Of a stretch of 14,035 bases of DNA, positions 9,879 to 12,739 are shown piece by piece. Both the position numbers and the translations under genes were made by a program. The notes under the pieces were generated by a model, which saw only the letters and a program-made list of their open reading frames with translations, searched no databases and had not been told where the DNA came from. The stretch comes from a virus, in the IMG/VR virus record IMGVR_UViG_3300005935_005627, positions 1 through 14,035 of that record; one strand, 5' to 3'. Numbering within the stretch: the stretch's first letter is position 1; the number at the start of each line of letters is the position of its first letter.

Positions 9879-10097
9879 ATGGTTACAAACGAAACTTTAT
9901 TAGAATGGTATATGAAGGGATTCGACGACGAATTAGATGGGACATCTTCCTTAATGTCAAAGCATGAGTCGTTGAATATTGCATATAACGTCGGAGCATT
10001 AGATGCTGAATATGGTGACGATGATACTGAAACTGATTACATAAGTGATAGAGAATTATTGATAAAAATTAAACAATTTGTTGAAAATGGAAAGTAA
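9879..10097 (+). CDS. Small acidic hypothetical protein, 72 aa
   Basis: Asp/Glu-rich ORF. Its 3' end overlaps the nadE start. Confidence 0.4.
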   Translation: MVTNETLLEWYMKGFDDELDGTSSLMSKHESLNIAYNVGALDAEYGDDDTETDYISDRELLIKIKQFVENGK

Positions 10098-10965
10098 AAT
10101 TAATTACGAATCAGCAATCAAAAACATTAGGTCAGAGCTTAAAACTTACTTAGTTGATAGTAACCTAAAGTCTGTAGTACTCGGTGTATCTGGGGGCATC
10201 GATAGCACCCTCTGTGCATTGCTAGCCCAACCAGTTTGTCATGATTTAAACATCCCCTTAATTGGTAGATCCCTACCATCAAGTTCTAATTCAGAAGGTG
10301 AAAATACAAGAGCCATGGTAATTGGGGACTTATTTTGCGATAATTTCAAAGAAGTAAATATTAGTCGACAAACTGACAGTCTTATTCATTTAGTAGACGA
10401 ACCTTATCATAATCAAGATGAATCGTGGCGGTTGTATGCTGAGGAACGTGCCATTCAAAATGGTAATGTTAAAGCTAGAGTTCGAATGATTTATCTTTAT
10501 GATTTAGCAAGTATAAATCAAGGTGTTGTTCTTTCTACTGATAATTGGACAGAATATCTTCTTGGTTTTTGGACATTGCATGGAGATGTAGGAGATTATG
10601 GGATGGTACAAAGTCTGTGGAAAACAGAGGTTTATGAAATGTCTGATTGGATTGTAAAAAATGAATTAACATCAGATTTTGTAAAAGAAGCAGTTCAAGA
10701 GGTAATAAATGCGGATGCTACTGATGGTCTTGGTATTTCAAAATCTGATATGGATCAAATTATGCCCGGGTGGAAAGGAAGTTCCAGAGCTGGATATGCA
10801 GAAGTTGATAAAATACTTATGAAAGCAGTTGATCTTGTAAAATTTCCAAAATCATTAGCAAAAAGATATCCCGAATCTCATCCTGTTATTGATAGACATT
10901 TAAGAACTGAATTTAAGAGACATAATCCTCTTAATATTTCAAGAGAAAATATTATAAATAAATAA
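10078..10965 (+). CDS. nadE: NH3-dependent NAD+ synthetase (NadE, PP-loop ATP pyrophosphatase). The start may be Met 10087.
   Basis: SVVLGVSGGIDSTLCALLAQ contains the SGGxDS PP-loop. GNVKARVRMIYLYDLASINQGVVLSTDNWTEYLLGFWTLHGDVGDYG matches E. coli NadE [46 protein letters not shown]. C-terminal RHLRTEFKRHNP matches YLKTEHKRRPP. Confidence 0.9.
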   Translation: MLKMESKINYESAIKNIRSELKTYLVDSNLKSVVLGVSGGIDSTLCALLAQPVCHDLNIPLIGRSLPSSSNSEGENTRAMVIGDLFCDNFKEVNISRQTDSLIHLVDEPYHNQDESWRLYAEERAIQNGNVKARVRMIYLYDLASINQGVVLSTDNWTEYLLGFWTLHGDVGDYGMVQSLWKTEVYEMSDWIVKNELTSDFVKEAVQEVINADATDGLGISKSDMDQIMPGWKGSSRAGYAEVDKILMKAVDLVKFPKSLAKRYPESHPVIDRHLRTEFKRHNPLNISRENIINK

Positions 10966-10979
10966 CACATACACATATT

Positions 10980-11291
10980 ATGAAAATTACATTTATTAAA
11001 TTTATTTTGTGGTTCTATACCAACCATATTCAAGAGGATTGGTCGGATTACAATAAAATAGGAAAAATTATTATTTTTCCTGCATGGTTTGTTCGATCCG
11101 TTGTATTTTGGATCGTATGTCCACTTTTTATTCCGGAATATATGTTTAAACAAAGTGAAGTTTATCATGCTTTTGAACAACAAGGCAAGCTTACTCCACA
11201 ACAAATGGCAGAATTTAACAAAATTCAAAAGCAAAATTTCCTTAATAAGAAATATGGAAAGAATGGTCAAGGTAACAAACTAAATAAATAA
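10980..11291 (+). CDS. Small membrane protein, 103 aa
   Basis: Hydrophobic stretches FIKFILWFY and IIIFPAWFVRSVVFWIVCPLFI. Gln/Lys-rich tail. Confidence 0.45.
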   Translation: MKITFIKFILWFYTNHIQEDWSDYNKIGKIIIFPAWFVRSVVFWIVCPLFIPEYMFKQSEVYHAFEQQGKLTPQQMAEFNKIQKQNFLNKKYGKNGQGNKLNK

Positions 11292-11304
11292 TTTTAACAA
11301 AAAA

Positions 11305-11338
11305 TTAATACAGAAAATGGCATCTGTGTTAATTTTTT
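11305..11338. terminator. Bidirectional intrinsic terminator between convergent genes
   Basis: TTAATACAGA-AAATGGCA-TCTGTGTTAA forms a 10-bp stem (one G-U). TTTTTT follows on the + strand and TTTTTTGTT on the - strand. Confidence 0.6.
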
Positions 11339-11350
11339 GGTTATATTAAT
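11335..11350 (+). promoter_or_regulatory. TTTTGGTTATATTAAT promoter-like motif (copy 5), pointing toward the 3' end of the minus-strand endonuclease gene and on toward pncA
   Basis: Same motif as the other four copies, again fused to a terminator T-run. Confidence 0.3.
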
Positions 11351-11360
11351 ATAAATTAAT

Positions 11361-12038
11361 TTAATTAGTTCTTTTAATTATTGAAATATTTGATTCTATT
11401 AATATTCGTTTAACGGTTTGGGGAGAAGTTTTAAATTTAATTCCTATTTTATTCATTGAAATATTATTTAAATAATCTTTGATAATTGAATTTATATCTT
11501 TTTTAGAAAAATGGATATATCTTCCATTATTTTTACCAGAATTTTTTTGACTGATAGAATTTTTGGTTTCTTTAGAATGTTTTCGGTTCTTTGATGTTTT
11601 GGATATTGTGGTACGATATGTAGGATGATTTTGATATCGTTCTTTTATAGATTTACTAATTTTATTTTTAGTATCTTTTTTGAATGATTTAGCGTTCCAA
11701 TTTGGATTGTTTTCACCCATACATTTTCCTTTTCGAGAAAGACTAATTTTTCTTTTAGTTGAATTAGATAACAATGAGTTATTTCCTCCTTCTCTTAAAT
11801 TATATCCACCTGGATAAATAGAATTAAATTTTTTAATAAAAAGTATTTCGTTATTATTTAGATCATCAATATTATTGCATTCTTTGATGATCGTTTTTTG
11901 GAAATTTTCCTTTCCATATTTTTTAATAGCTCTTTTTATTAAAAGTCCAGATCCCAAATATTGATCATTTACATCTCCAGTATGCTGGCCAATGTAAATA
12001 GTACCGTTTATTAAATTTGTTGTTTTATAAATGTACAC
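11361..12038 (-). CDS. GIY-YIG homing endonuclease (Seg-like) with C-terminal NUMOD repeats and HTH. This is the only minus-strand gene in the window.
   Basis: MYIYKTTNLINGTIYIGQHTGDVNDQYLGSGLLIKRAIKKYGKENF...YNLREGG gives GIY...YLG, Arg and Glu motifs. RKISLSRKGKCMGENNPNW is a NUMOD3-like repeat. C-terminal IGIKFKTSPQTVKRIL. Confidence 0.85.
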   Translation of the reverse strand: MYIYKTTNLINGTIYIGQHTGDVNDQYLGSGLLIKRAIKKYGKENFQKTIIKECNNIDDLNNNEILFIKKFNSIYPGGYNLREGGNNSLLSNSTKRKISLSRKGKCMGENNPNWNAKSFKKDTKNKISKSIKERYQNHPTYRTTISKTSKNRKHSKETKNSISQKNSGKNNGRYIHFSKKDINSIIKDYLNNISMNKIGIKFKTSPQTVKRILIESNISIIKRTN

Positions 12039-12061
12039 TTTTTATTATATATATTAAAATT

Positions 12062-12739
12062 ATGAAAGAAAAAAAATACACAAGAAGTAGGAAGGCTTTA
12101 CTTATCATCGATGCCCAGTATGATTTCATGCCGGCGACTGAAGAGGATTATAAGAATGGACAAGGGGGAGCATTGGCAGTACCGAACGGTGATCAAATCG
12201 TTCCTGTAATAAATGAATTGTTACCCCAATTTGATTTAATTATTTTTACAAAGGACTGGCATCCTACAGGTATGAAGGCATTTGCCTCTTCATATAAAAC
12301 TAAGAAGCCATTCGATACGTATAAAGTAAATGGAAAAGAAGATACGTTGTGGCCAGATCATTGTATTGCCGAATCTTATGGAGCTATGATCCATGAAGGA
12401 ATAGATCTCAGTTTAATTAAAGATGAAGCTGAATTTTATATCTTTAAAAAAGGATTGGAAAAAGATAAACATCCTTATTCTGGATTTGATGGAACAGGAC
12501 TTGGATTCTTTTTAAGAGAGAAAAATATAGAAACTGTATTTATTTGTGGATTGGCAACCGATTATTGCTGCAAAGATACAGCAATAGATGCAAATAATGA
12601 AGGGTTTGAAACATTCTTTATTATGAATGCAACTAAACCAATTAATCCAGATATAACTAAAACTATAAAAGAACTTCATTTGCATGGAGTAAAAATGATA
12701 GATTCTTGGCAATTACCTTTAACGTTTTTAACACAATAA
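12062..12739 (+). CDS. pncA: Nicotinamidase / pyrazinamidase (PncA, isochorismatase-like cysteine hydrolase). The track's 12017 start is rejected.
   Basis: ALLIIDAQYDF...GGALAVPNGDQIV...IFTKDWHP...LWPDHCI...FICGLATDYCCKDTAIDA is colinear with E. coli PncA (ALLLVDLQNDF...GGALAVPEGDSTV...SQDWHP...FWPDHCV...IVMGLATDYCVKFTVLDA). The ATG at 12062 precedes MKEKKYTRSRKALLIID. Confidence 0.9.
   Translation: MKEKKYTRSRKALLIIDAQYDFMPATEEDYKNGQGGALAVPNGDQIVPVINELLPQFDLIIFTKDWHPTGMKAFASSYKTKKPFDTYKVNGKEDTLWPDHCIAESYGAMIHEGIDLSLIKDEAEFYIFKKGLEKDKHPYSGFDGTGLGFFLREKNIETVFICGLATDYCCKDTAIDANNEGFETFFIMNATKPINPDITKTIKELHLHGVKMIDSWQLPLTFLTQ

Follow-up and report, generated by a model that had tools for sequence, protein, structure and literature searches.

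The stretch analysed here (the window) comprises 14,035 nt, positions 1 to 14,035 of the IMG/VR virus record IMGVR_UViG_3300005935_005627. Its GC content is 31%, and its plus strand carries every convincing gene except one. Towards its right end lie genes for a predicted nicotinamide adenine dinucleotide (NAD+) synthetase, nadE, and a predicted nicotinamidase, pncA, accompanied by homing endonuclease genes and a small open reading frame (ORF). We think it probable that nadE and pncA open a 14.8-kb island for the acquisition and synthesis of NAD+ in a large Bacteroidota phage. The features of this part of the window are:

10087 to 10965, plus strand: nadE, 292 aa (longest ORF from a TTG at 10078); Pfam NAD_synthase, E = 5e-33
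10980 to 11291, plus strand: ORF of 103 aa; a single strong hydrophobic helix at about residues 29-50, and a tail that is polar and basic
11361 to 12038, minus strand: GIY-YIG/NUMOD3 homing endonuclease 1, 225 aa, GTG start; TIGR01453, 58.4 bits against a cutoff of 56.05
12062 to 12739, plus strand: pncA, 225 aa (ORF from 12017); Pfam Isochorismatase, E = 1.4e-21
12770 to 13468, plus strand: GIY-YIG/NUMOD3 homing endonuclease 2, 232 aa; Pfam GIY-YIG, E = 1.5e-8, and NUMOD3, E = 8e-11

NadE passed the TIGR00552 model with 105.7 bits (cutoff 63.65) and contains one NAD_synthase domain (residues 14-284), the glutaminase (CN-hydrolase) domain being absent. When it was aligned with the solved structures 5wp0, 3p52 and 2e18, the PP-loop SGGIDS (residues 35-40) and the motifs GNVKARVRM, STDNWTE...GD and LWKTEV were all recovered. 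The protein is divergent, with a best PDB E-value of 7e-16, and its matches include the Francisella NadE 3fiu. The exact 292-aa product that starts at the ATG at 10087 was called on 10 public contigs, whereas the product from the TTG at 10078 had no exact match in public assemblies. NadE is predicted to be an NH3-dependent NAD+ synthetase that performs the last step of the Preiss-Handler route, from nicotinate adenine dinucleotide (NaAD) to NAD+.

PncA passed the Pfam Isochorismatase cutoff, and its top four PDB matches are all nicotinamidases (E = 1e-31 to 1e-22, with 2wt9 and 1ilw at about 1e-31). Its catalytic triad D17/K130/C169 aligned with D10/K94/C133 of 1ilw from P. horikoshii, and its metal ligands D65 and H67 (in KDWHP) and H100 (in WPDHC) aligned with D52/H54/H71 of the same structure. 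An Asp/His/His metal site of this kind sets nicotinamidases apart within the isochorismatase fold. The exact ATG-started product (12062) was called on 15 public contigs from several samples. PncA appears to be a divergent family member and is predicted to convert nicotinamide to nicotinate and NH3 at the entry of the deamidating route. An earlier, sequence-only reading of this stretch had named both genes, and both names hold: nadE is an intact ORF that passes its family cutoff and keeps its catalytic motifs, and the best NCBIfam and PDB matches of PncA are nicotinamidases whose triad and metal site it retains. That reading had named a lack of catalytic residues as one ground against itself; alignment found the motifs of both proteins intact. 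Judged from sequence, neither NadE nor PncA looks decayed, and by their E-values the domain matches for the two genes and their neighbours are far from what chance would give.

The island continues past the edge of the window. Positions 1-13829 match the European Nucleotide Archive (ENA) contig ERZ27316532 k141_754490 (40,146 bp) with 2 mismatches, and the genes downstream of the window were read on this sister-strain contig (positions 1-39570); the contig closest to the window (99.98%) stops near position 14100. The longest contig with island genes is 57 kb; the genomes of its nearest relatives on deposit measure 462 and 735 kb. From nadE to nadR the island spans 14.8 kb (record positions 17720-32511 of the ENA contig). 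After nadE come a small membrane ORF, a homing endonuclease gene, pncA, another homing endonuclease gene, four small ORFs, a radical-SAM gene, two small ORFs and pncB, which is followed by PTH2, two small ORFs, a MazG-nadD fusion, a small ORF, a gene for a TonB-dependent receptor (TBDT) and a small ORF, and then by a Macro domain gene, two small ORFs, a homing-endonuclease-like gene and a nadR-like gene. The start of pncB is 2.4 kb beyond the end of the window, and pncB and nadD both fall within 6 kb. The genes read there, with coordinates on loci L001 and L103 where these apply, are:

L001 12801 to 13742, plus strand: radical-SAM protein, 313 aa, between pncA and pncB; generic Radical_SAM domain only, CxxxCxxC at C16/C20/C23
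Sister-strain contig: pncB; NF003704, 475.6 bits (cutoff 379), and TIGR01514, 422 bits (cutoff 269.55)
L001 15522 to 15956, plus strand: full-length PTH2 protein, 144 aa, directly after pncB; PF01981, E = 3.4e-24
L001 16745 to 17644, plus strand: MazG-NadD fusion, 299 aa; MazG-like residues 9-81 (ExxE, EExxD), NadD motifs GGAFDPITKGH and ISSTQIR
L001 17918 to 19876: TBDT, 652 aa; signal peptide, plug and barrel domains
Between the TBDT and nadR-like genes: Macro domain protein, 159 aa; nearest solved structures BT1257, TARG1, DarG and Poa1p
L103 13106 to 13900: homing-endonuclease-like ORF, 264 aa; NUMOD3 and DUF559, both weak
L103 13866 to 14900: NadR-like protein, 344 aa; TIGR01526, 170 bits (below the cutoff of 341), PFHKGH (HxGH) and GTESTGKT (Walker A)

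Because pncB and the NadD domain follow nadE and pncA on the sister-strain contig, all four Preiss-Handler steps appear to be phage-encoded; the PncB and NadD of the host would then not be needed, and NadR would add a second route. The genes pncB, nadD and nadE, by which a Preiss-Handler set was recognised by Li et al. 2024, all lie on one sister-strain contig. Nampt, Prs, NadM and NrtR were not found on the contig (Prs and Nampt were sought by tblastn with bacterial queries over positions 1-39570). The sequence-only reading had proposed a search for pncB, nadD, nadV and NMNAT-like genes; of these, pncB, nadD and the NadR-like gene were recovered, and Nampt was not. The small ORFs of the island gave nothing above the curated cutoffs in Pfam, RyR/RyDEP-type and other anti-defence domains included, and three of them had no NCBIfam match.

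Other viral contigs repeat the gene order, with proteins that are 50-75% identical, and it is kept in L022, L016, L021, L018, L017 and the huge phage LR756501. In the IMG/VR contig L022 the order is dCMP deaminase-nadE-pncA-rSAM-pncB-PTH2-Macro at 50-68% protein identity, with nadE and pncA directly adjacent. L016 reads dCMP deaminase-nadE-pncA-pnuC-TBDT-MazG/nadD-Macro-nadR, and both L021 and LR756501 read pncB-nadE-TBDT-pnuC-nadR-pncA. By tblastn, the pncA, nadR, pnuC, TBDT, nadE and pncB genes of LR756501 are clustered at 423-431 kb (L013 13086-21430). This 735-kb phage, which was said to have nadD only (Li et al. 2024, PMC11662467), carries the whole cluster on this evidence. The genes are rare among deposited phages: matches in 50,697 records numbered 17 for PncA, 13 for PncB and 48 for NadE. 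The NAD module therefore appears old and syntenic, because its order is kept in diverged phages and nadE adjoins pncA in L022, and the homing endonucleases are probably its sole mobile parts. The region had been described in the sequence-only reading as recently shuffled, a description that the conserved order in L022 does not support; the endonucleases alone seem to move.

Both endonucleases are flankers of pncA and stand in divergent orientation. Endonuclease 1 matched phrog_314 with E = 5.5e-33 (GC 0.237); endonuclease 2 scored 64.4 bits on TIGR01453, matched phrog_314 with E = 1.6e-34 (GC 0.25) and is 42% identical to endonuclease 1 over the catalytic domain. Their GC of 0.24-0.25 compares with 0.33-0.34 for nadE and pncA. 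Homologues occupy other positions in L016 and L022, and no gene stands at the site of endonuclease 1 in L022. The pair has the marks of free-standing GIY-YIG enzymes, namely an N-terminal GIY-YIG domain with NUMOD3, an intergenic location and a presence that varies among relatives. The 103-aa ORF had no match in Pfam, NCBIfam or PHROG, and tblastn gave none in the related phage loci; the ORF is missing from L022 and is lineage-specific. Since nadE and pncA are directly adjacent in L022, the 103-aa ORF and endonuclease 1 together look like an insertion in this lineage, and the homing endonucleases would be selfish insertions outside the NAD+ pathway. Domains and family scores agree with the sequence-only reading that homing endonucleases are interleaved with the NAD genes. 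That reading also placed a membrane protein and two GIY-YIG genes between nadE and pncA; the small hydrophobic ORF and one GIY-YIG gene are indeed there, but the second GIY-YIG gene (12770-13468) lies 3' of pncA, beyond the region which it had described. Endonuclease-like genes are very dense. Within 40 kb they comprise two 213-aa NUMOD3 genes, three of GIY-YIG type, a DUF559/Vsr-like gene and a NUMOD3/DUF559-like gene, and HNH was detected in the window copy of the 213-aa NUMOD3 gene. Besides endonucleases 1 and 2, the endonuclease-like genes lie at:

Window 4297 to 4938, plus strand
L010 152 to 931 and 1662 to 2303
L103 13106 to 13900 and 20977 to 21597

To place the TBDT among its relatives, a profile was made from eight phage copies, which gave 515 genomic relatives; the counts that follow refer to the best 80 of these 515, with the neighbouring ORFs of the 80 loci grouped by clustering. 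These 80 share 35-41% identity with the phage TBDT, and only four come from records with a label other than Bacteroidota or unclassified bacteria. In 59 of the 80 bacterial loci a PnuC gene follows the TBDT gene, the median distance between them being 3 nt, and PnuC of these loci scored 118 bits on TIGR01528 (cutoff 42). A NadR-like gene was present in 75 of the 80, and NAMPT, NrtR, NadM-Nudix, Prs, ADP-ribosylglycohydrolase and KptA were each found in a further 9-14. None of the 80 loci had pncA, pncB, nadD or nadE within 8 kb of the TBDT. The Preiss-Handler genes were considered as native partners of the receptor and rejected; pnuC and nadR partner it instead.

Because the bacterial orthologues sit in TBDT-pnuC-nadR operons, we predict that this family of TBDTs of about 650 aa imports nicotinamide riboside or a related B3 vitamer. 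An Rfam search of 8 bacterial TBDT loci found no family, riboswitches included, at the gathering score, and the phage loci likewise had no riboswitch in Rfam, hence no clue to the substrate. Our literature search found no paper connecting a TonB-dependent receptor to pnuC and nadR, and the bacterial TBDT-PnuC-NadR context is apparently new. Among deposited phages, the TBDT occurs only in huge Bacteroidota phages (Prevotella Lak megaphages, LR756501, LR756502 and LR745206) and a few faecal fragments. In each of the 14 TBDT-carrying phage loci examined, nadR, pnuC or Preiss-Handler genes lie no more than about 10 kb away. LR756502 and LR745206 have a contiguous TBDT-pnuC-nadR arrangement, as in bacteria, and Lak-A1 has all three genes within 9 kb; pnuC lies beside the TBDT or nadR gene in 8 related phage loci.

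From the directly observed gene identities, catalytic motifs, pathway completeness, synteny in diverged phages and bacterial operon context of the TBDT, we infer enzyme activities, substrate preferences, a TBDT substrate, expression timing and a counter-defence effect along the following lines. PncA would convert nicotinamide to nicotinate, PncB would combine nicotinate with phosphoribosyl pyrophosphate (PRPP) and ATP to give nicotinate mononucleotide (NaMN), NadD would turn NaMN into NaAD, and NadE would amidate NaAD to NAD+. In parallel, a B3 vitamer, of which nicotinamide riboside is the likeliest, would pass the outer membrane through the TBDT and the inner membrane through a PnuC that either the host or another part of the phage genome supplies; NadR would convert the imported riboside to nicotinamide mononucleotide (NMN) and then to NAD+. 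The Macro domain may process an ADP-ribose derivative. The net effect would be an NAD+ supply of the infected cell that is independent of host enzymes and serves phage replication. Such a supply would also blunt those defences that cleave NAD+ with release of nicotinamide (SIR2, TIR, RES and others). As the route needs nicotinamide and PRPP only, it should work whichever NADase cleaved the NAD+; the same argument has been made for NARP2 (bioRxiv 10.64898/2026.01.28.702374). A counter-defence role is plausible, and the genes suit general NAD+ supply just as well; neither role excludes the other. Whether the island has a measurable counter-defence effect seems to us evenly balanced.

Three phage pathways for rebuilding NAD+ have been validated, NARP1 (Adps and Namat), NARP2 (Nampt and Nmnat) and NARP3 (PnuC and NadR), and none of them contains PncA, PncB, NadD or NadE. 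NARP3 restores NAD+ and defeats Sir2-HerA (PMC13464706), and a Poa1p-like Macro phosphatase is a validated add-on which extends NARP1 against RES defence (bioRxiv 10.64898/2026.01.28.702374). If the island works as we read it, it would be a fourth biochemical route by which phages rebuild NAD+. The sequence-only reading had presented PncA with NadE as a different, undescribed solution. However, Li et al. 2024 (PMC11662467) had already reported pncB-nadD-nadE clusters in the Bacteroidota-infecting Kuafu clade, had found a complete salvage or Preiss-Handler pathway in 174 of 668 gut jumbo phages, and had proposed counter-defence while arguing also for a role in NAD+ supply. The 2026 description of Xanthomonas phage X1 suggests the same counter-defence idea, and a 2022 survey of viral NAD-ADPr systems leaves PncA, PncB, NadD and NadE unmentioned. 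The idea of counter-defence by a phage Preiss-Handler route is thus already published, from metagenomic data. What the island adds is that pncA is an integral and syntenic member of the cluster and that the MazG-NadD fusion, the Macro domain and the TBDT/NadR branch share the island.

The NAD-jumbo phages of Li et al. 2024, for example Kuafu_71, resemble the island most closely. They have clustered phage pncB, nadD and nadE and predicted Bacteroidota hosts, and the same hypotheses (independent NAD+ supply and a counter to depletion) apply to them; both are known from metagenomes only. In that paper pncA appears only in the discussion, whereas here it lies within the cluster, so that the route starts from nicotinamide. 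The main text of the paper contains none of the words 'TonB', 'macro' and 'MazG', whereas the island has the TBDT, Macro, MazG-NadD and nadR genes. NARP2 of Vibrio phage KVP40 (Osterman et al. 2024) also starts from nicotinamide and PRPP, uses classical salvage chemistry and works however NAD+ was cleaved, provided that nicotinamide is released. It takes two amidated steps via NMN, whereas the island would take four deamidated steps via nicotinate, NaMN and NaAD; NARP2 is experimentally validated, whereas the island is predicted from its genes, and no Nampt homologue was found on its contig.

Phage Bas30, the source of NARP3 (Yan et al. 2026, PMC13464706), shares with the island a phage NadR-like kinase/adenylyltransferase and the import of an external precursor. 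In NARP3 a PnuC gene is adjacent; related huge phages carry pnuC next to nadR. Relative to NARP3, this lineage adds an outer-membrane TBDT, in the manner of the Bacteroidota TBDT-pnuC-nadR operon, and the Preiss-Handler route. NARP1-AP (Adps, the Macro phosphatase Adpp and Namat) likewise has a Poa1p-related Macro protein among NAD-rebuilding genes, but the island lacks Adps and Namat (tblastn with Prs and Nampt queries), so ADP-ribose would not be recycled. Finally, the bacterial pncA-pncB-nadE and Bacteroidota TBDT-pnuC-nadR operons use the same enzyme families and catalytic motifs as the island. Bacteria keep the Preiss-Handler and TBDT sets apart, whereas the phage merges both, with homing endonucleases interleaved. 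It is conceivable, though we lean against it, that huge Bacteroidota phages captured the outer-membrane part of a TBDT-PnuC-NadR operon for B3 vitamers and that it is joined here to the four-step route as a dual-input, broad counter-defence, which would both take in an outside precursor like nicotinamide riboside and recycle the nicotinamide that NADases set free. Such a system would amount to a diderm-adapted NARP3 together with a 'NARP4', and would be the first phage TonB-dependent nutrient importer with an assigned role. The operon context of the bacterial TBDTs gives a testable substrate prediction for a widespread Bacteroidota TBDT family, including those of gut Bacteroidales and Lak megaphages, and so bears on the vitamin B3 economy of the gut.

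Several observations weigh against the island as a working, host-independent NAD+ pathway with a part in counter-defence. PncA scored 118.7 bits on NF008623, the nicotinamidase/pyrazinamidase model that is its best NCBIfam match, below the equivalog cutoff of 174, and the NadD domain, with its motifs intact, scored 110 bits on TIGR00482, just below the cutoff of 112.45. pnuC was not found on contig positions 1-39570. The pncB, nadD, TBDT and nadR genes were read on a sister strain that is 28% divergent from the window between 13830 and the window's last base. Removal of nicotinamide relieves product inhibition of sirtuin-type enzymes, and PncA could thereby favour SIR2 NADases. For a TBDT to be built into the outer membrane within a lytic cycle, time is required as well as the Sec, BAM and TonB machinery of the host. 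The four-step Preiss-Handler route consumes more ATP than that of Nampt (PMC9316036), an odd choice for rebuilding NAD+ in an emergency. We found no experiment in the literature on a Preiss-Handler set restoring NAD+ or rescuing plaques under NADase defence.

The alternative that survives best is that the island is purely auxiliary metabolism, serving the high NAD+ demand of a huge phage (for example NAD-dependent ligase, tRNA repair and ADP-ribosylation) in a long infection with no immune evasion. An importer with two independent routes resembles nutrient scavenging more than the recycling of a cleavage product, and nadE alone is common in phages (cyanophages, pelagiphage HTVC008M, phage G and Atu_ph07). 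Jumbo phage PA5oct raises expression of the pncA-pncB1-nadE operon of its host with no known NADase trigger, and Li et al. (PMC11662467) list many NAD-consuming enzymes for such phages. On the other hand, NARP2 and NARP3 consist of ordinary salvage enzymes and yet defeat NAD-depleting defences, and any pathway from nicotinamide to NAD+ is expected to counter NAD depletion. Moreover, the island includes a Poa1p/TARG1-like Macro domain, as does the validated NARP1-AP, and supply does not exclude counter-defence. We regard an exclusively metabolic role as a real possibility but a somewhat unlikely one.

A different biochemical order is improbable in our view. NadE could act as an NMN synthetase that converts NaMN to NMN, as in Francisella, with a NadR or NadD adenylyltransferase finishing the synthesis and NaAD bypassed. 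The divergence of NadE and its match to Francisella 3fiu would suit this order, and so would the NadR-like NMNAT encoded in the same island. However, the island also encodes a domain of the NadD family, whose usual preference is for NaMN, so that the canonical order is fully provided for.

It is very improbable that PncA and NadE form a two-enzyme partial pathway for which host PncB and NadD are required, as the sequence-only reading supposed. Inside the 14-kb window nadE and pncA do stand alone, but this partial appearance arises because the window was cut ahead of pncB and nadD. Both follow less than 6 kb away on the sister-strain contig, and the four genes co-occur in related phages. The other option in that reading, that further phage genes lie elsewhere, fits what was found (pncB, nadD and the NadR-like gene).

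That the region comes from a bacterial chromosome, or that host NAD genes were joined to phage DNA in a chimeric assembly, is scarcely credible, for although close homologues of pncB, TBDT and NadR exist in cells and the TBDT family is bacterial apart from the phage copies, the identical arrangement was assembled separately from at least five samples, the gene set recurs in IMG/VR contigs, in the closed genomes LR756500, LR756501 and LR756502 and in Lak-A1, the bacterial TBDT loci lack Preiss-Handler genes beside the receptor, and the region holds 7 homing-endonuclease-like genes and tRNA arrays.

The phage origin assumed in the sequence-only reading is supported by the near-uniform strand, the numerous small ORFs, the tRNA arrays, the homing-endonuclease-like genes (7 in 40 kb) and the viral relatives, both the IMG/VR contigs and the huge phages LR756500 and LR756501, which have been published. 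When the window in full was compared by megablast with the 50,697 deposited phage records, no nucleotide match was obtained. The nearest deposited relatives of NadE, PncB and an 805-aa vault-like protein are in LR756500 (462 kb) and LR756501 (735 kb), at 50-61% protein identity. Judged by these protein relatives, the carrier appears to be a large Bacteroidota phage related to LR756500 and LR756501.

From 13830 to its end the window differs from the sister-strain contig at 57 of 206 positions (28%), without indels and in register, and this stretch represents a diverged allele of one 172-aa gene. The switch in identity begins 20 bases inside that gene (start 13810), about 360 bases 3' of the second homing endonuclease. 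So sharp a switch at 13830 could be a recombination or co-conversion boundary, or could reflect a hypervariable gene.

Several other genes stand in or beside the island. The gene on the left of nadE is conserved and is no NAD enzyme; it adjoins nadE also in L015, L016 and L022:

9307 to 9813, plus strand: dCMP deaminase; Pfam dCMP_cyt_deam_1, E = 1.8e-23; phrog_174, E = 3.7e-48

The radical-SAM protein had no match in a PDB sequence search and no specific Pfam family; in L022 its gene keeps the position between pncA and pncB at 56% identity. We know of no NAD salvage step that needs a radical-SAM enzyme. PTH2 follows pncB in L018 and L022 and lies near NAD genes also in L015 and L017. The MazG-NadD fusion is kept in L016 at 72% identity; the NMNAT-Nudix fusion NatV of phage KVP40 resembles it. 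The Macro domain is closer to BT1257 and TARG1 than to Poa1p. The window also carries a second, short PTH2 copy and, near its left end, a vault-like gene:

5002 to 5283, plus strand: short PTH2 copy, 93 aa; first 20 or so Pfam model positions missing
165 to 2582, plus strand: vault-like protein, 805 aa; major-vault-protein Shoulder, E = 3.5e-27, Vault_3 repeats, weak SPFH/Band 7

The vault-like protein had no PHROG family. It is about 50% identical to its counterparts in LR756500 and LR756501 and 63% identical to that in an IMG/VR contig. In eukaryotes, vaults contain TEP1 and PARP4, two enzymes that use NAD. Directly 3' of the vault-like gene, at window positions 2641-4080 on the plus strand, are three successive small proteins (161, 163 and 148 aa) with Bacteroidota-type signal or lipoprotein leaders, for example MKKILTLFVAIFAFATMSFAQ; these leaders fit a Bacteroidota host.

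A full-length GOLLD RNA was found on the same contig at L010 5931-6416 (plus strand; Rfam RF02032, 154.7 bits, cutoff 150); it lies about 1.2 kb before the window begins and 1.4 kb upstream of the vault-like gene. GOLLD is a giant structured RNA that is often phage-borne. The pairing of GOLLD with a vault-like gene was not seen in the 4-kb upstream flank of L109, the sole relative with enough flank. A tRNA match (L010 6005-6074) lies inside GOLLD, and six more tRNAs are found within 6 kb. Within the window, a tRNA gene at 5991-6063 (plus strand, 59 bits) runs into the beginning of the longest-ORF call (6006-6533), whose coding start is 6081 according to public assemblies.

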